A model generated the notes under the pieces. That model searched no databases. It was not told where the DNA came from and was given only the letters and a program-made list of their open reading frames with translations. A program made the position numbers and the translations under genes. Shown here piece by piece: positions 2,252-16,341 of a stretch of 57,677 bases of DNA. Origin of the DNA: Escherichia phage vB_EcoP_24B; the sequence record HM208303; one strand, given 5' to 3'. Position 1 is the first letter of the stretch. The number at the start of each line of letters is the position of its first letter.

Positions 2252-2646
2252 TCTGACAATTCGTTGATCAAGTCACGGTATTTATTCAGTTCTTGCAGCG
2301 CCTTACATGCACCCTCCCATCGTTTCTGTTTCCGCCCGGCGCGGCGCGCTTCTTTCCGTGATTTACGTAGCAGGTCACCTATAATGTTGTGCTGCACTGG
2401 CTGCACTGGCTGCACTGGCTGCACTGGCTGCACTGGCTGCACTGGCTGCACTGGGGCGATATTTGGTTTTTTGTCCACTTCCCTTGCAACTGCCTGCCAG
2501 ATGCCATTTTTTACAGTTACTACCCCCTGGTTTTTTAACTTCCATAGAGTGTCAATAACGTCATTCAAATCAATATTGAGACCTTTAGAAATACTTTCGG
2601 CTGATGCTTTTCCTAATTTGTTCAATTCTGTGAGCACTGCGTTCAT
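2248..2646 (-). CDS. Small putative DNA-binding protein with a (Pro-Val-Gln)x7 linker
   Basis: 132-aa ORF; N-terminal HTH-like region, central PVQ x7 encoded by a 9-bp tandem repeat, basic C-terminus (RKSRKEARRAGRKQKR). Confidence 0.6.
   Translation of the reverse strand: MNAVLTELNKLGKASAESISKGLNIDLNDVIDTLWKLKNQGVVTVKNGIWQAVAREVDKKPNIAPVQPVQPVQPVQPVQPVQPVQHNIIGDLLRKSRKEARRAGRKQKRWEGACKALQELNKYRDLINELSE
2392..2454. repeat. Perfect 9-bp tandem repeat CTGCACTGG x7 (in-frame, encodes PVQ on the minus strand)
   Basis: Counted directly in the sequence. Confidence 0.95.
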
Positions 2647-2681
2647 TTTTTTCTCCTGATATTTTAATGTCGGTGGGGCTG

Positions 2682-2897
2682 TTATACGGTTGGTGAGGTG
2701 TCAGCTTCTTCTACCAGCTTTTCCAGTTCATCCAGCTTTCGGGAAAGAATTTCACCAAACAGATGAAGTTCTGCATCTGCTGTAATCGGGATTGGAACAA
2801 ATCGTATTCCACTTCTGGCAAGTTGCAGGTTAGCCACGGTTAACCTCCTGCGGCGGTTCCGGTAGCGGCATCCAGTGTGACGGTTTCCACGACGCAC
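2682..2897 (-). CDS. Small protein, paralog of the lambda orf63-like ORF at 4344-4535
   Basis: Shares the RFVPIPxxxDxExH motif with the 4344-4535 ORF; overlaps the upstream ORF by 68 nt. Confidence 0.45.
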   Translation of the reverse strand: MRRGNRHTGCRYRNRRRRLTVANLQLARSGIRFVPIPITADAELHLFGEILSRKLDELEKLVEEADTSPTV

Positions 2898-3735
2898 CAG
2901 GAATTATCCACCCATCATTAGCGTCAGGATGCCCCGGGATGTAAGTCGCCCACTTCATTCGCCAGTCACCTTTCCTGTCAAACTCCACGGCAACAAGAAC
3001 GGCTGTTTTGGTATCCGGCATTCGCTCACTACAACTTATCCAACCATCCGGAGTTACCGGAGAGTTGCCAGACAGCGCATTCTGCAACCGTTCCAGCTTA
3101 ACGTATTCCTGAACCCTGTTTCCGTCGCACGCCTGAAGCCATTGCTCAGCCTTTTGCGCATCAGTGTGAAAGGCACAAGTGCGACCGTCATCAAATTGCA
3201 TTTCGTAGAGGTTAGCAATCTGTTCAAACTGCGTGTGTGGCAACTTGTAAGTTTGGCTTACGAGTTCGGCTTCCAGTTCTGCTATGCGCTTCTCTGATGC
3301 TTCAAGTAACGCCTGCTTATCGCGTAGCGCTTCTTCCAGTTCAGCAACATGGCATTCACTATCAATAAGGTTGTTCTCTGCTGCTCCCAGCTCAACTCTC
3401 AGCTTCCCAACCGTAAGCGCAATCTCCTCGTTCTCCTGGTCGCGGCGTTTGATGTATTGCTGGTTTCTTTCCTGTTCATCCAGCAGTGCCAGCACGGTAG
3501 CCGGGTTAGCCTCTGCTATGAATTCAGCGTTTGCATAAGCCTGATCATCTGATTCAATCAGGCAGTTAACATGACATTCCGCAATCACGCCACCGGGTTC
3601 TCCTTTCCATTTTTGGCAAACAAAAACTCCTGTTAAATTGCCGTGCTGGTTAACAGATGTATGCCCTACGATGTAGCTTCCTTTAGTTGCTTTCTCTGCC
3701 TTTTCACGCAGTGCCTGATAATTAATTTCGCTCAC
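2830..3735 (-). CDS. Ead/Ea22-like early protein with C-terminal DUF551-like domain
   Basis: 301 aa; coiled-coil middle; C-terminal DGWISCSERMPD...WMPLPEPP resembles DUF551 as recalled from lambdoid early regions. Confidence 0.6.
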   Translation of the reverse strand: MSEINYQALREKAEKATKGSYIVGHTSVNQHGNLTGVFVCQKWKGEPGGVIAECHVNCLIESDDQAYANAEFIAEANPATVLALLDEQERNQQYIKRRDQENEEIALTVGKLRVELGAAENNLIDSECHVAELEEALRDKQALLEASEKRIAELEAELVSQTYKLPHTQFEQIANLYEMQFDDGRTCAFHTDAQKAEQWLQACDGNRVQEYVKLERLQNALSGNSPVTPDGWISCSERMPDTKTAVLVAVEFDRKGDWRMKWATYIPGHPDANDGWIIPGASWKPSHWMPLPEPPQEVNRG

Positions 3736-3953
3736 TTCGAACCTCTCTGTTTACTGATAAGCTCCAGATCCTCCTGGCAACTTGCACAAGTCCGACAACC
3801 CTGAACGGCCAGGCGTCTTCGCTCATCTATGGGATCGCCACACTCGCAACAATGAGTGGCAGATATAGCCTGGTGGTTCAGGCGGCGCATTTTTATTGCT
3901 GTGTTGCGCTGTAATTCTTCAATTTCTGATGCTGAATCAATGAGGTCTGCCAT
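3732..3953 (-). CDS. DksA/TraR-family C4 zinc-finger protein
   Basis: 73 aa with CxxC...CxxC (CCECGDPIDERRR...CRTCASCQ). Confidence 0.7.
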   Translation of the reverse strand: MADLIDSASEIEELQRNTAIKMRRLNHQAISATHCCECGDPIDERRRLAVQGCRTCASCQEDLELISKQRGSK

Positions 3954-4051
3954 CTTTCATTAATCCCTGAATTGTTGGTTAATACGCTTGAGGGTGAATG
4001 CGAATAATAAAAAAGGAGCCTGTAGCTCCCTGATGATTTTGCTTTTCATGT

Positions 4052-4333
4052 TCACCGTTCCTTAAAGACGCCGTTTAACATGCCGATCGCCAGACTTAAA
4101 TGAGTCGGTGTGAATCCCATTAGCGTTACCGTTTCGCGGTGCTTCTTCAGTACGCTACGGCAAATGTCATCGACGTTTTTATCCGGAAACTGCTGTCTGG
4201 CTTTTTTGATTTCAGAATTAGCCTGACGGGCAATGCTGCGAAGGGCGTTTTCCTGCTGAGGTGTCATTGAACAAGTCCCATGTCGGCAAGCATAAGCACA
4301 CAGAATATGAAGCCTGCTGCCAGAAAAATGCAT
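4052..4333 (-). CDS. Hypothetical early protein (likely start at 4267)
   Basis: ORF in the position of lambda orf61; internal Met (MTPQQEN...) is the more plausible start. Confidence 0.5.
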   Translation of the reverse strand: MHFSGSRLHILCAYACRHGTCSMTPQQENALRSIARQANSEIKKARQQFPDKNVDDICRSVLKKHRETVTLMGFTPTHLSLAIGMLNGVFKER

Positions 4334-4343
4334 TCTGTTGTTG

Positions 4344-4535
4344 TCATGCCGGGTCTCTCTCGTTTGCTTCTGCTTTCGCCGCCATCATTTCCAGCTTTTG
4401 TGAAAGGGATGTGGCTAACGTATGAAATTCTTCGTCTGTTTCTACTGGTATTGGCACAAACCTGACTCCAATTTGAGCGAGGCTATGTGCCATCCCGATA
4501 CTCGTTCTTAATTCAACAGGAGATGCTTTGTGCAT
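4344..4535 (-). CDS. Lambda orf63-like protein
   Basis: 63 aa; sequence recalled as close to lambda orf63 ([13 protein letters not shown]...RFVPIPVETDEEFH). Confidence 0.6.
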   Translation of the reverse strand: MHKASPVELRTSIGMAHSLAQIGVRFVPIPVETDEEFHTLATSLSQKLEMMAAKAEANERDPA

Positions 4536-4696
4536 ACAGCCCCTCGTTTATTATTTATCTCTTCAGCCAGCCGCTGTGCTTTCAGTGGATTTCGGATAAC
4601 AGAAAGGCCGGGAAATACCCAGCCTCGCTTTGTAACGGAGTAGACGAAAGTGATCGTGCCTACCCGGATATTATCGTGAGGATGCTTCATTACCAT
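4508..4696 (-). CDS. Lambda orf60a-like protein
   Basis: [11 protein letters not shown]...KHLLL matches lambda orf60a as recalled; start may be the ATG overlapping the exo stop (4690). Confidence 0.6.
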
Positions 4697-5367
4697 TGCT
4701 CCCCATATACAAAACCAATTTCAGCCAGTGCCTCGTCCATTTTTTCGATGAACTCCGGCACCATCTCGTCAAAACTCGCCATGTACTTTTCATTCCGCTC
4801 AATCACGACATAATGCAGGCCTTCACGCTTCATGCGCGGGTCATAGTTGGCAAAGTACCAGGCATCTTTTCGTGTCACCCACATGCTGTACTGCACCTGG
4901 GCCATGTAAGCCGATTTTATGGCCTCGAAACCACCGAGCCGGAACTTCATGAAATCCCGGGAGGTAAACGGGCATTTCAGCTCAAGGCCGTTGCCGTCAC
5001 TGCATAAACCATCGGGAGAGCAGGCGGTGCGCATACTTTCGTCGCGATAGATGATCGGGGATTCAGTAACATTCACGCCGGAAGTGAACTCAAAGAGGGT
5101 TCTGGCGTCGTTCTCGTACTGTTTTCCCCAGGCCAGAGCCTTAGCGTTAACTTCCGGAGCCACACCGGTGCAAACCTCAGCCAGCAGGGTGTGGAAGTAG
5201 GACATTTTCATGTCAGGCCACTTCTTTCCTGATCGGGGTTTTGCTATTACGTTGTGAATTTCTGAAGCTGTGATGACGCCGAGCCGTAATTTGTGCCACG
5301 CATCATCTCCCTGTTCGACAGCTCTCACGTCGATCCCAGTACGCTGCAGGATAATGTCCGGTGTCAT
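4690..5367 (-). CDS. exo: Lambda exonuclease (Red alpha)
   Basis: 225 aa, near-identical by recall to lambda Exo ([36 protein letters not shown]...). Confidence 0.95.
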
Positions 5368-12407: not shown

Positions 12408-12551
12408 ATGCGAAAAACGCAGGAAAATAAACGCGTTAATCACCGAAAAGATGTGCTACGTGACCAGTTTTATCAGGGGGTTAATCCAGCAATAGCTGTG
12501 CCACTGAGAGAAATACTTAACAGGTACAAAACTTCGGAGAAGTCAAAATGA
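12408..12551 (+). CDS. Small basic ORF (47 aa) between cII and the initiator
   Basis: Distal part of track ORF 12240-12551; ATG at 12408 preceded by GAGG; ATGA overlap with the next gene. Confidence 0.3.
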   Translation: MRKTQENKRVNHRKDVLRDQFYQGVNPAIAVPLREILNRYKTSEKSK

Positions 12552-13324
12552 GCATGAATCTTATGGCTAAGGCCATGAATATAAAGGTTGGCAACCCACT
12601 GAGAAAACTGGTTCTGATTAAACTTGCCGATAACGCCAATGATAATGGCGAATGCTGGCCTTCATATCAACATGTCGCTGACCAGTGTGAGGTGAGCAGA
12701 TCGACAGTAAAAAGTCACATTAGGGCACTGGAAGAGATGGGGCTTTTGAAAAGGGAATTCAGAAGAAAAGGAGAGCTTAACCAGTCAAACGTTTTTTATC
12801 TGACGCTGGATAATGCACAACAAATCCAACCAGAATCAGGTGGGGCAGGAGCTGCCCGGGGTGGGGCAGGAGCTGCCCTAGGGGGTGGGGCAGGAGCTGC
12901 CCCCAGAACCTATCACTCTTTTGAACCAGTCAATGAACCTAAAAACATTATGTTCGAACATGTCCGAACAGAGTGTGAAAAAACTCCTGACCGTCACGAA
13001 GAAACCGACAAGGCATTCGAGGAAATATTCTGGTGTGCAGGCATGCGGAAAGCCGGGAAGAAAAACGCAGCTTCAGCATTCAGAACACAGTTCAGGGAAT
13101 GGCGTAAAACTACCAGGGGGACGGCAAGCGAGTTTGCCACGATGCTGGCAGAAGACATTGCGTGCAGGCTCGGTAAGCAGTTCGGGTTCGACAGGTTGTT
13201 ACCATCGAGCTACCTGAACGGTCAACGCTGGAACGACGAGAAGCCAGAAACTATTCAACCACAATCCAAACCATCATCCGCAATCACCGTATCGAAAACT
13301 GGCTACGTGTTTTTCGACAGGTGA
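12548..13324 (+). CDS. Replication initiator (O-like, N-terminal winged HTH) containing an iteron array
   Basis: 258 aa; HTH-like N-terminus; central GGAGAA repeats encoded by iterons, analogous to lambda ori inside O. Confidence 0.6.
   Translation: MSMNLMAKAMNIKVGNPLRKLVLIKLADNANDNGECWPSYQHVADQCEVSRSTVKSHIRALEEMGLLKREFRRKGELNQSNVFYLTLDNAQQIQPESGGAGAARGGAGAALGGGAGAAPRTYHSFEPVNEPKNIMFEHVRTECEKTPDRHEETDKAFEEIFWCAGMRKAGKKNAASAFRTQFREWRKTTRGTASEFATMLAEDIACRLGKQFGFDRLLPSSYLNGQRWNDEKPETIQPQSKPSSAITVSKTGYVFFDR
12839..12902. repeat. Three direct copies of GGTGGGGCAGGAGCTGCCC (iteron-like, each an imperfect palindrome)
   Basis: Copies start at 12839, 12860 and 12884, inside the initiator gene. Confidence 0.5.
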
Positions 13325-13434: not shown

Positions 13435-16341
13435 ATGACTCCAAGTGAACTGAGCGACCTGCTTTGGGCGCAGGTTGACAGGGTGGCTCCGCACCTGTTG
13501 CCAAACGGCAAGAAAGAGGGGCATGAGTGGGTTGCCGGTAACGTCAACGGTGACAAGGGAAACAGCCTTAAGGTCAACATTAGCGGCAAGAAAAAATGGG
13601 CTGATTTCGCTGAGGGAGACGGCGGTGACATGCTTGATTTGTGGATGGCATGTCGTGGAATTAACCTGCATCAGGCTATGCAGGAAGCGAAAGCATTTCT
13701 CGGTATCAAGGATGACGATCACCATTTCGATGCCAAACGTGAGAAAAAATTCTCCAGACCTGACCGCAAGAAAATCGCCCGCTACGTTACCAGAACAGAA
13801 TCCCATCTTGAGTACCTGCAATCGCGTGGCATATCGCCAGAAATCGTAAAGCGCTACGAGGTTGTCAGCGGCAAGGTGTGGAATGGAGAGCGGGAACTGG
13901 ATGCTCTGGTGCTTCCGTACAAACGCGATGGTGAGTTGTTGCAGGTCAAGCGAATCAGCACTGAGCGCCCGGACGGGAAGAAAGTCATTATGGCAGAAGG
14001 TGATTGCGAACCTTGTCTGTTCGGATGGCAGGCTCTGGACGCTGGCGTGAGGGCGGTTGTACTTTGCGAAGGCGAAATTGATTGTATGAGCTATGCGCAA
14101 TACGGCATCTCGGCGTTATCCGTGCCGTTTGGTGGCGGGAAAGGCGCTAAGCAGCAGTGGATTGAGTTTGAGTATCACAACCTCGACAGGTTTGAGGAAA
14201 TATTCATCTCGATGGACGTTGATGATGTTGGTCGTGAAGCCGCAAGGGAAATCGCAAGCCGACTCGGTGAACATCGTTGCCGTCTTGTTACTCTGCCGTA
14301 CAAAGACATCAACGAATGCCTGATGAACGGTGTTACCGAGGATGAAATCTGGCAGTACATCGGCACGGCATCCTATTTCGATCCTGAAGAACTCTACAGT
14401 GCGCGAGAGTTTTACCAGGACACTATCAACGCTTTCTACGGCAAGAAGCAGTATCTGTTTAATCCACCGTGGGAATCTCTGGCAGATAAATTCCAGTTCC
14501 GTGAGGCCGAGTTGACGCTGGTCAATGGTGTGAACGGTCACGGAAAGGCATGCCCACTGAATGAGCCTATTCTTTTAGCTGATGGGACATGGACTACTCA
14601 CGGGGATGTAAAAATTGGCGATCAGGTGGCGTCAGTAGACGGCAATCCGTCAACTGTCACTGGGATATTCCCGCAGGGTGTTAGAGATGTTTACCGAGTC
14701 ACATTTGAAGATGGTCGTTATGTTGATTGCGCAGGCGATCACCTATGGGAGGTCACTAGTCGTGGATTCACGAAAGGCGAGAAACGCCGCGTGATTGACA
14801 CCTTCGAGCTGAAGCGGTTGAGTGAAACGAAGAGGCACAAAAATGGCGTTAGGATTCCTGAAATAACTGGTGACTTTGGCGACCACTCAGAGCCATTAGC
14901 ATGGGTTATCGGCTCCCTTCTCGGGGATGGTAGTCTTAGCAATGGGAGCGTGAAGTTTTCAAACGTCGAGCCATACATGATCGAGCGTATGAAGGCTGAA
15001 CTGCCTGATTACAACTTCTCTGGAGATGGTAAGGACTGGCTGATATCAACGGCGCGTGGTCAGGCAAATCCACTCATGGAGACCCTGCGAGGTTATGGAC
15101 TAATGGGGTGCACAGCAAAAAACAAATTCATCCCTCGTGTGTTTTTTTCCGCAAATAAATCAACGCGTATAGGCATGCTGTGTGGTCTGCTTGAAACGGA
15201 TGGGTATGTCGAGAAGGATGGAACGCTTGTTTTTTCCTCAGCAAGTGAAGAACTGCGCAATGGGGTTGTTCAACTGGTTAACTCACTCGGCGGGTCATGC
15301 CGGACGCGAGTTAAAACTGGCGTGACATACACATACAAGGACGATAAGCGGCATGGGATGGATTCATACGAGGCAAGAATCAGACTGACAAGAGAAATCA
15401 GGGAGGCCATCCGTTCACCACGACTCAATGGCAGATTAACTGCGCATCGATTCGAGGGCTGTGGGGTATTCGTCAGGAATGTTGAAAAAATCGGCAATGC
15501 AGAATGCTTGTGTATTATGGTCGATCACCCTCGCCACCTGTATGTAACCAGGGGATATGTGGCGACGCATAACACCGAGGTTGTCGGGCATATGGCACTT
15601 GAGGCAATGCGTCAGGGTGTGAAGACGTGCATCGCGTCACTTGAGCTGAAGCCTGGTATTCTCCTTAAGCGCCTTACCCGTCAGGCGACGTGCTGCAAGA
15701 TGCCGCCAGTGCTGGAAATTGACTCTGCATTTAAATTTTATGACGAAAGACTTTGGGTGTTTGGCCTGACCGGAACGGCGAAAGCCGACAGGCTGATCGA
15801 AATATTCGACTACGCTCGCCGCCGATACGGTATCCAGTTATTCATCATCGACAGCCTGATGAAATGTGGCATAGGCGACGATGACTATAACGGGCAGAAG
15901 GCGTTTGTTGACTCGATTTGCGACTTCAAAAACAAAACAAACTCCCACGTCATTCTCGTTACTCACTCGCGAAAAGGAGACAGCGAAGAAAAACCAACCG
16001 GGAAAATGGACGTAAAAGGCTCTGGAGCGATAACAGACCTGACAGACAACCTTTTCATCATCTGGCGTAACAAGGCTCGCGAGAGAGCGTTACAGAGAGT
16101 TCAGAGTGGTGAAAAGATGTCAGAGAAGGACGAACAGCTACTGGCATCTCCGGCATCTGTTTTGATGCTTGAAAAACAACGTAACGGCGAAGGTTGGGAA
16201 GGTGGTGTCCCGTTGTTCCTTGACGAGCAATCGCACCAGTTCCTGCAACTTGAATCAGGATCGCCATATAGCTACATCGCCAATATGCCGAAATCGGAAT
16301 ATGACGAGGCGTGGCGACAGGAAAACGTGACGGAGTATTAA
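13435..16341 (+). CDS. Bifunctional DNA primase / replicative helicase, interrupted by an intein
   Basis: 968 aa; Toprim motif (VVLCEGEIDC) N-terminally; RecA-like helicase C-terminally (LFIIDSLM Walker B-like); about 341-aa insertion with intein hallmarks. Confidence 0.85.
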   Translation: MTPSELSDLLWAQVDRVAPHLLPNGKKEGHEWVAGNVNGDKGNSLKVNISGKKKWADFAEGDGGDMLDLWMACRGINLHQAMQEAKAFLGIKDDDHHFDAKREKKFSRPDRKKIARYVTRTESHLEYLQSRGISPEIVKRYEVVSGKVWNGERELDALVLPYKRDGELLQVKRISTERPDGKKVIMAEGDCEPCLFGWQALDAGVRAVVLCEGEIDCMSYAQYGISALSVPFGGGKGAKQQWIEFEYHNLDRFEEIFISMDVDDVGREAAREIASRLGEHRCRLVTLPYKDINECLMNGVTEDEIWQYIGTASYFDPEELYSAREFYQDTINAFYGKKQYLFNPPWESLADKFQFREAELTLVNGVNGHGKACPLNEPILLADGTWTTHGDVKIGDQVASVDGNPSTVTGIFPQGVRDVYRVTFEDGRYVDCAGDHLWEVTSRGFTKGEKRRVIDTFELKRLSETKRHKNGVRIPEITGDFGDHSEPLAWVIGSLLGDGSLSNGSVKFSNVEPYMIERMKAELPDYNFSGDGKDWLISTARGQANPLMETLRGYGLMGCTAKNKFIPRVFFSANKSTRIGMLCGLLETDGYVEKDGTLVFSSASEELRNGVVQLVNSLGGSCRTRVKTGVTYTYKDDKRHGMDSYEARIRLTREIREAIRSPRLNGRLTAHRFEGCGVFVRNVEKIGNAECLCIMVDHPRHLYVTRGYVATHNTEVVGHMALEAMRQGVKTCIASLELKPGILLKRLTRQATCCKMPPVLEIDSAFKFYDERLWVFGLTGTAKADRLIEIFDYARRRYGIQLFIIDSLMKCGIGDDDYNGQKAFVDSICDFKNKTNSHVILVTHSRKGDSEEKPTGKMDVKGSGAITDLTDNLFIIWRNKARERALQRVQSGEKMSEKDEQLLASPASVLMLEKQRNGEGWEGGVPLFLDEQSHQFLQLESGSPYSYIANMPKSEYDEAWRQENVTEY
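14551..15573 (+). mobile_element. Intein with LAGLIDADG-type homing-endonuclease motifs
   Basis: Begins at Cys (KA|CPLNEPILLADG), block-B-like TxxH, two LAGLIDADG-like motifs (SLLGDGSL, LCGLLETDGYV), ends His-Asn followed by Thr (ATHN|TEV); in frame, about 341 aa. Confidence 0.75.

Follow-up and report, generated by a model that had tools for sequence, protein, structure and literature searches.

A probable class 3 intein with a two-motif LAGLIDADG endonuclease divides the ATP-binding loop of the replication primase-helicase of an Stx2a-converting phage

The replication primase-helicase gene of Escherichia phage vB_EcoP_24B was analysed in a 57,677-nucleotide (nt) stretch of DNA (sequence record HM208303), referred to here as the window. 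Positions 14548..15573 very probably encode a 342-amino-acid (aa) class 3 intein with a two-motif LAGLIDADG homing endonuclease, which separates Lys371 from Thr714 in the Walker A motif, and the protein is translated with its ATP loop split. That the insert is an intein with a LAGLIDADG endonuclease is far beyond chance, and the insertion itself, its exact boundaries, motif set, class 3 homology, modelled fold and presence/absence polymorphism are all evident from the data. The element is already known, as published work covers P-loop inteins, class 3 chemistry and this insertion; what is new here is the exact boundary (14548 rather than 14551), the class assignment with counts from its relatives, and a survey of alleles.

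The open reading frame (ORF) at 13435..16341 on the plus strand spans 2907 nt and encodes a 968-aa precursor, as the ORF list records and as an earlier note on this DNA, made from the letters and that list, had described. Phage matches to the gene, found by megablast, fell into two groups, one covering 100% of the gene and the other covering 65% of it in two pieces. The two-piece group included Stx2_EH2086/EH2085, APC_JM3.2, Sf101 and mEp043, at 98.4-98.7% DNA identity, and the same pattern was seen at 87% identity in Salmonella phages such as epsilon34. The intein-free genes are 1881 nt long and encode 626 aa, with the protein reading ...LVNGVNGHGK-TEVVGHMALE.... At the DNA level the junction is GGA AAA/ACG GAG in the empty alleles and GGA AAG [GCA TGC ... 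CAT AAC] ACC GAG in the window, and the empty target site of mEp043/Sf101 is ...AACGGTCACGGAAAAACGGAGGTTGTCGGG.... Exactly 1026 nt (342 codons, 14548..15573, Ala372-Asn713) are absent from the near-identical empty alleles. The insert is therefore in frame, at a conserved host site, and missing from orthologues that are otherwise nearly identical. The parts of the gene that this comparison defines are as follows.

13435..14547, plus strand: N-extein, aa 1-371, comprising the Toprim primase part and the start of the helicase domain and ending in GVNGHGK371; from alignment with the 626-aa alleles and the DNA junction.
14527..14547, plus strand: N-terminal part of Walker A (GVNGHGK); empty alleles read GVNGHGKTEVV.
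14548..15573, plus strand: intein, 342 aa, Ala372-Asn713, 38.0 kDa; from the presence or absence of 1026 nt relative to mEp043, Stx2_EH2086 and epsilon34.
15574..16341, plus strand: C-extein, aa 714-968 and stop, starting with Thr+1 (the Walker A Thr) and holding the rest of the RecA/DnaB-like helicase domain; from the empty-allele alignment.

The window translation around the insert reads ...NGVNGHGK-A-CPLNEPILLADG...YVATHN-TEVVGH.... Because the empty-allele junction reads GK/TE, the insert begins at Ala372, and Cys373 is its second residue. It divides Walker A between Lys371 and Thr714 (GVNGHGK/T), a motif that Thr714 (15574..15576) would complete only after splicing. The earlier note had correctly placed the insert at the nucleotide-binding loop and ended it at His-Asn followed by Thr (...VATHN/T), but the insertion lies within Walker A, between Lys and Thr, and not after a loop ending in ...GKA. 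Its proposed length of about 341 aa, its start at 14551 and its choice of Cys as residue 1 give way, by the empty alleles and the relatives described below, to 342 codons, 14548 and Ala372. The alignment with intein-less homologues that it called for shows a 342-codon insert absent from the 626-aa orthologues, which is not the behaviour of a conserved native domain. Removal of the insert restores a contiguous Toprim-primase and helicase, as had been expected: this is the form of the natural 626-aa alleles, and their profile matches run across the junction.

Class 3 inteins are defined by a non-nucleophilic residue 1, a Trp-Cys-Thr triplet at block positions B12, F4 and G5, and Thr or Ser at +1 (PMC2807308; PMC3196547), and most of them sit in the P-loop of helicase-type ATPases (Tori et al., PMC2807308). 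Counting from Ala1, the insert has His65 (B10), Trp67 (B12), Cys322 (F4), Thr340-His341-Asn342 (G5-G7) and Thr+1. It thus carries intein blocks A, B, F and G, with the block B His, the C-terminal Asn and Thr+1, and it also has Ala at position 1 and the complete class 3 triplet. The block B motif TxxH that had been proposed is not there: T..H occurs just once in the insert, as TKRH at residue 94, outside block B, which is GRYVDCAGDHLWEV. The splicing blocks are listed here, with residue counts from the aligned relatives introduced below.

14548..14586, plus strand: block A, ACPLNEPILLADG, with Ala1 and Cys2; in register with M. smegmatis DnaBi1, 4-69 to 4-69.
14713..14754, plus strand: block B, GRYVDCAGDHLWEV, with Ala62 (B7), His65 (B10) and Trp67 (B12); His and Trp invariant in 141/141.
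15502..15549, plus strand: block F, ECLCIMVDHPRHLYVT, with Cys322 (F4), the predicted initiating nucleophile; Cys in 141/141, aligned with the catalytic Cys of 6rix and 6bs8.
15553..15573, plus strand: block G, GYVATHN, with Thr340 (G5), His341 (G6) and Asn342 (G7); Thr in 139/141, His in 140/141, Asn in 141/141.

The best sequence matches in the Protein Data Bank (PDB), found with phmmer, were to the M. chimaera DnaB1 intein (6rix/6riy, E 4.8e-10) and the M. smegmatis DnaBi1 intein (6bs8). Query residues 4-69 pair with chain residues 4-69, and in block F clCimVDhPrHLYv pairs with vrCveVDnPeHLYl. MchDnaB1 has SVGK directly before its Ala1 (PMC7664689), and Msm DnaBi1 uses His65 and Trp67, numbering identical to that of the window intein (PMC6195587). 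The hidden Markov model (HMM) search for inteins that the earlier note had asked for returned Hint, intein-family and LAGLIDADG_3 matches in the insert. The Pfam matches were to LAGLIDADG_3, Hom_end_hint and Hom_end. Matches to NCBIfam models inside the insert were mostly intein-linked, to RecA and GyrA with inteins and to two radical-SAM enzymes with inteins; the remainder were to replicative DNA helicase, RNA polymerase A'', ribonucleotide reductase and RFC.

A word-indexed homologue search gave 6 matches, which included a DnaB (GARPKMGK/AMALEAK..., 51% identical), a PhoH-like ATPase (GTGK/AQPLTAK...VTHN/T) and a DnaB mini-intein (VGK/AIPNYT...LTHN/T). All three have Ala first and none has Cys beside it. 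An exhaustive search of 1.84 billion representatives found 16,992 proteins at E<=1e-3, and we aligned the 141 full-length members among its top 150. Apart from the Cys at residue 2, nothing sets the window intein apart within this large family, in which residues are distributed as follows (numbers out of 141).

Position -1: Lys 128.
Residue 1: Ala 107, Glu 14, Pro 5, Cys 3.
Residue 2: Gln 113, Leu 25, Cys 0 (consensus A-Q-P-L).
B10 and B12: His 141 and Trp 141.
F4 and G5: Cys 141 and Thr 139.
G7: Asn 141.
Position +1: Thr 128, Ser 12, Cys 1.

These data also bear on whether the element might instead be a class 1 intein of 341 aa starting at Cys373 (14551), in which Cys373 would carry out the N-S acyl shift and Ala372 would stay in the spliced helicase. 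The Cys does stand directly before a block-A-like sequence, in an insert that ends His-Asn before Thr, and it is present in every intein-plus allele examined, including that of Klebsiella phage phiKp_30, where a synonymous TGC/TGT difference lies inside a highly diverged patch. Splicing of this kind would, however, yield GHGK-A-TEVV, with an extra Ala in Walker A, whereas all empty alleles, including the 87%-identical Salmonella ones, read GHGK-TEVV; GHGK-A-TEVV occurs in no natural allele, and a start at Cys373 is thus not supported. The relatives carry Gln or Leu at residue 2 and never Cys, and numbering from Ala puts His65 and Trp67 in register with the solved class 3 inteins. Residue 1 is Ala and not Cys, Ser or Thr, B7 is Ala and not Thr, and F4 is Cys and not Asp. 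In addition, the InBase data used by Tori et al. list the related Shigella prophage primase inteins among those without an N-terminal nucleophile (PMC2807308). Given the empty-allele junction, the register of the motifs and the relatives' counts, we reject the class 1 reading with Cys373 as residue 1 and consider it highly improbable. The two proposals predict different Glu-C junction peptides, computed as LTLVNGVNGHGKTE (1437.76 Da, monoisotopic) if Ala372 is residue 1 and LTLVNGVNGHGKATE (1508.80 Da) if the junction is GHGK-A-TEVV.

The insert is predicted to adopt the HINT fold. An AlphaFold2 model built from a shallow alignment had a mean predicted local distance difference test (pLDDT) of 80.9 and a predicted template-modelling score (pTM) of 0.74. 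When this model was compared with the PDB using Foldseek, PI-SceI ranked top (E 6e-18, TM about 0.7), followed by the TliVMA and PhoVMA inteins and PI-PfuI; further matches were to the class 3 mini-inteins 6rix and 6bs8 over the splicing domain (TM 0.81-0.83) and to I-DmoI over the endonuclease domain. The two LAGLIDADG-type motifs that had been noticed in the insert are indeed present (LAWVIGSLLGDGSL and RIGMLCGLLETDGYV), with a LAGLIDADG_3 match of 35.1 bits against a Pfam cutoff of 22.5. Each ends in a catalytic acid and, together with the block D Lys, follows the family consensus.

14896..14937, plus strand: LAGLIDADG motif 1 (block C), LAWVIGSLLGDGSL, intein residues 117-130, with catalytic Asp127; Gly122 in 141/141, Asp127 in 121/141, matched by LAGLIDADG_3 and Hom_end.
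15118..15144, plus strand: block D, KNKFIPRVF, with Lys193 and Pro196; Lys in 138/141, Pro in 141/141, aligned with the KN-IP segment of PI-SceI.
15166..15210, plus strand: LAGLIDADG motif 2 (block E), RIGMLCGLLETDGYV, intein residues 207-221, with catalytic Asp218; Asp218 in 139/141, Gly213 in 141/141, aligned with LAGLIDSDGYV of PI-SceI.

The endonuclease looks intact, since Asp127, Asp218, Lys193 and Pro196 fit both the family consensus and the alignment to PI-SceI.

Splicing, the initiating nucleophile and endonuclease activity are what we infer from these features, following the class 3 pathway demonstrated by experiments on the Bethlehem DnaB, Dra Snf2 and mycobacterial DnaBi1 inteins (PMC2807308; PMC3196547; PMC6195587). 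The computed masses are 109.2 kDa for the precursor, 71.1 kDa for the ligated exteins and 38.0 kDa for the free intein. The precursor, with its P-loop split, would presumably be dead as an ATPase; a P-loop split in this way is presumed unable to bind ATP, as stated for P-loop inteins in general (PMC6195587). Cys322 (F4), activated by His65 and Trp67, would attack the Lys371-Ala372 bond to give a thioester branched intermediate, and the N-extein would then be transferred to the side chain of Thr714 (+1). Cyclization of Asn713 would free the 38-kDa intein, and an O-to-N shift would leave a 71-kDa helicase with an intact GKT loop and the architecture of the natural 626-aa intein-free alleles. Once free, the intein is predicted to be a site-specific endonuclease that would cut intein-free alleles at ...GGTCACGGAAAA/ACGGAGGTTGTC..., and the element may spread by homing during co-infection or prophage-phage encounters.

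To place the intein among natural alleles, we surveyed complete E. coli genomes. The host gene was present in 296/5426 and intein DNA in 79/5426, in every case full length, at least 99% identical, inside the host gene and at the same site. The same intein is carried by Klebsiella phage phiKp_30, a Lederbergvirus whose gene is 98.4% identical to that of the window. Within the intein the two differ by 17 synonymous and 9 non-synonymous changes, and the ratio of non-synonymous to synonymous rates (dN/dS) of 0.16 is consistent with purifying selection. The presence/absence pattern fits a mobile element and, by itself, does not prove recent homing.

The differences between the window and phiKp_30 genes are unevenly spread. 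A 90-nt bin spanning the intein start holds 14/52 of them, and the synonymous rate (dS) is about 1 over the first 20 intein codons and 0.04 over the rest of the intein. This diverged patch (window 14548-14610) suggests a short stretch of recombination from a third intein variant. Cys2 is kept in phiKp_30 despite a change from TGC to TGT. Elsewhere, the Shigella flexneri copies are broken into pieces of about 574-586 aa and 274 aa, with the break within or after the endonuclease domain, and are probably the ShP-Sfv primase inteins that Tori et al. mention as 'partial'. The Min27 copy (EU311208 / NC_010237, 14575-17483) is 2909 nt long instead of 2907, and its annotation divides it into two genes (P and 'DNA primase'), which suggests a frameshift or a sequencing error in the record. 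This split annotation explains the '87% identity' given in PMC3430580.

The broken copies raise the question of whether the window intein is itself a decayed, splicing-dead remnant, with the 968-aa protein either inactive or working unspliced, for instance only as a primase, and the helicase supplied by the host or another prophage. Such decay has precedents in the truncated S. flexneri copies (574-586-aa and 274-aa pieces), which match the 'partial' primase inteins (PMC2807308), and in the class 3-like intein Arsp-FB24 Arth_1007, which is a pseudogene (PMC3196547). In the window, by contrast, His65, Trp67, Cys322, Thr340, His341, Asn342 and Thr+1 are all intact, the ORF is uninterrupted in the 79 E. 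coli genomes at 99% identity or more, and the dN/dS is low (0.16). The intein-plus allele moreover sits in the sole replication module of Stx2a phages with complete genomes (F403, Min27, Xuzhou21-Stx2a and phiKp_30), and ATP binding is not expected of a P-loop interrupted by 342 aa (PMC6195587). We therefore regard a remnant as improbable.

Another reading is that the intein splices while its endonuclease is no longer active, and that it persists by vertical descent and whole-module recombination among lambdoid phages; we hold this to be possible, if doubtful. Variable extein sites in two intein-plus and two intein-minus alleles revealed no co-conversion tract around the insertion: the only sites that segregate with the intein are the third base of Thr+1 and two sites about 300 nt downstream (+294 and +303). 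The 98.4% whole-gene identity between a Traversvirus and a Lederbergvirus (phiKp_30) likewise fits modular exchange. Arguing for an active enzyme, both LAGLIDADG motifs and Asp127, Asp218 and Lys193 match the consensus, replacement changes are not in excess in the endonuclease region, and the 87%-identical Salmonella allele still shares the 50 nt around the empty site, such that targets exist. As a separate matter, we considered and rejected unusual conservation of the homing site, as this 50-nt run of identity between the empty alleles of E. coli and Salmonella ranks only third by length in the gene, behind two of 53 nt. A search by tblastn for a second related intein elsewhere in the phage found none, with a single matching place in AP012529.

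Several observations count against a class 3 intein that homes, and have to be set beside the evidence above. Exchange of whole replication modules, and not recent homing, could have produced the presence/absence polymorphism. Class 3 membership is assigned from a sequence signature and from similarity. B7 is Ala here versus Asp62 in Msm DnaBi1; among the relatives this position is variable (Cys 75, Gly 22, Asp 19, Ser 13, Thr 9 and Ala 3). Finally, the Cys at residue 2, unique among the 141 relatives, may have a role. Cys373 adjoins the scissile Lys371-Ala372 bond, and its pairing with the catalytic Cys322, Cys320 or Cys61 might form a redox switch that gates helicase splicing, for which we see only the slimmest chance. 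In M. smegmatis DnaBi1, a Cys48-Cys118 disulfide reversibly blocks splicing under H2O2 (PMC6195587). If such a switch did operate here, oxidative conditions would gate Stx2a phage replication and hence amplification of the toxin gene.

The host gene lies in the replication module of a lambdoid phage. Its 2907 nt are 100% identical to the gene for the 'replication protein' of Stx2a_F403, Stx2a_F451 and phiXuzhou21-Stx2a (megablast against phage genomes) and to prophage copies in many E. coli O157:H7 and O111 chromosomes. The gene order in AP012529 is cI, cro, cII, an O-like initiator, the primase-helicase gene, the nin region, Q, three tRNAs and stx2AB. This identity and gene order mark the window as an Stx2a-converting lambdoid phage of E. 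coli O157:H7 (Traversvirus min27), in whose replication module the gene provides the helicase/primase.

13435..16341, plus strand: host gene, encoding the 968-aa precursor of the phage replication primase-helicase ('replication protein', 'P' or toprim domain-containing protein); from the ORF list and 100% identity to the annotated coding sequence.
14059..14322, plus strand: Toprim domain, aa 209-296; Pfam PF13155 Toprim_2, E 7.6e-12, 45.9 bits against a cutoff of 22.1.

A Toprim domain followed by a RecA-type helicase with Walker A is the arrangement of a T7 gp4 / Twinkle-like fusion, and database names for the host protein include bifunctional DNA primase/helicase and twinkle protein. In the 968-aa protein, only a C-terminal piece of AAA_25 is matched by Pfam (aa 787-849). 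The empty allele matches AAA_25 at 28.0 bits (cutoff 27) and DnaB_C at 23.8 bits (just under the cutoff of 27), and both matches span the junction. The exact 968-aa protein occurs on at least 1000 contigs, where its only names are 'toprim domain-containing protein' and 'replication protein P'; its UniRef name is 'P', from a Caudovirales record. It is recorded from E. coli, and its cluster members come from Shigella and Salmonella. Among the protein records of this cluster, no source name for the exact protein or for its members mentions an intein.

Two further features of the surrounding DNA were noted. The O-like gene (12548..13324) contains three tandem 21-nt repeats, GGGGTGGGGCAGGAGCTGCCC, at 12837-12902, each with an internal palindrome and together encoding a GGAGAA low-complexity stretch of the initiator; from their sequence and position they look like origin iterons inside the O gene, as in lambda. 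Upstream of stx2, at window positions 21679-21930, are three tRNA genes, the first of which is tRNA-Met (CAT) by ARAGORN and ileZ in GenBank. A CAT anticodon modified to read Ile is the usual source of such ambiguity between Met and Ile calls.

Because the sole helicase of the module has its ATP loop split by 342 residues, replication of the Stx2a phage most likely needs post-translational splicing. Phage replication amplifies the stx2 genes, and the intein is a conceivable control point or drug target that public annotation never flags. It would also make a convenient enterobacterial class 3 model, with a predicted intact endonuclease, for mechanistic work. The corrected class decides which mutants and which junction peptide bear on the chemistry.

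The insertion has been described before. Smith et al. (BMC Genomics 13:311, 2012; PMC3430580) reported an intein in replication protein P of phage vB_EcoP-24B, starting at residue 372, with orthologues in a Shigella flexneri prophage and in Min27. The window intein is probably this same element. Their protein has the same 968 aa, with an N-terminal Toprim and a C-terminal gp4d-type helicase; that report gave approximate limits (372-702) and assigned no class, whereas the exact boundary and the class are given here. Shigella and E. coli prophage 'Primase' inteins (ShP-Sfv-2a-...-n Primase) had already been catalogued in InBase by 2009 (PMC2807308). Full-length 'EP-Min27 Primase' and 'ShP-Sfv-5 Primase' entries are probably also in InBase.

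Among characterized inteins, those of the class 3 DnaB-b group (Bethlehem DnaB, Msm DnaBi1 6bs8 and Mch DnaB1 6rix) occupy the same Walker A site, between Lys and Thr or Ser, and share Ala1, His65, Trp67, the F4 Cys, Thr-His-Asn and Thr or Ser at +1. They differ in their host, which is a canonical DnaB and not a Toprim-fused gp4/Twinkle-like primase-helicase. The solved mycobacterial inteins have lost the endonuclease, whereas the window intein keeps a full LAGLIDADG domain; it also has Cys at residue 2 and Ala at B7, the latter in place of the Asp62 of Msm DnaBi1. PI-SceI (yeast VMA1), TliVMA and PI-PfuI have the same combination of HINT fold and inserted double LAGLIDADG domain, with blocks D and E aligning to PI-SceI. 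PI-SceI is, however, a class 1 intein (Cys1 nucleophile, Cys+1) with a V-ATPase subunit as host, and identity is only about 15-18%.

A parallel within the same phage group is the Stx2a phage Stx2_06E050 (LC616075), whose helicase gene lies at 2398..4791 of its record. Its class 3 intein is inserted at GMGK/AMAL...VTHN/TE, is 50% identical to that of the window, and has an almost identical block F (ECLCIMVSHPSHLYVT). It occupies the same slot in the replication module, but its host is a 797-aa DnaB-like helicase without Toprim, and its residue 2 is Met. By tblastn, 49 'Stx2a-converting' records match the window intein, three of them listed at about 50% identity. Related P-loop inteins are thus found in two helicase genes of Stx2a phages that are themselves unrelated.

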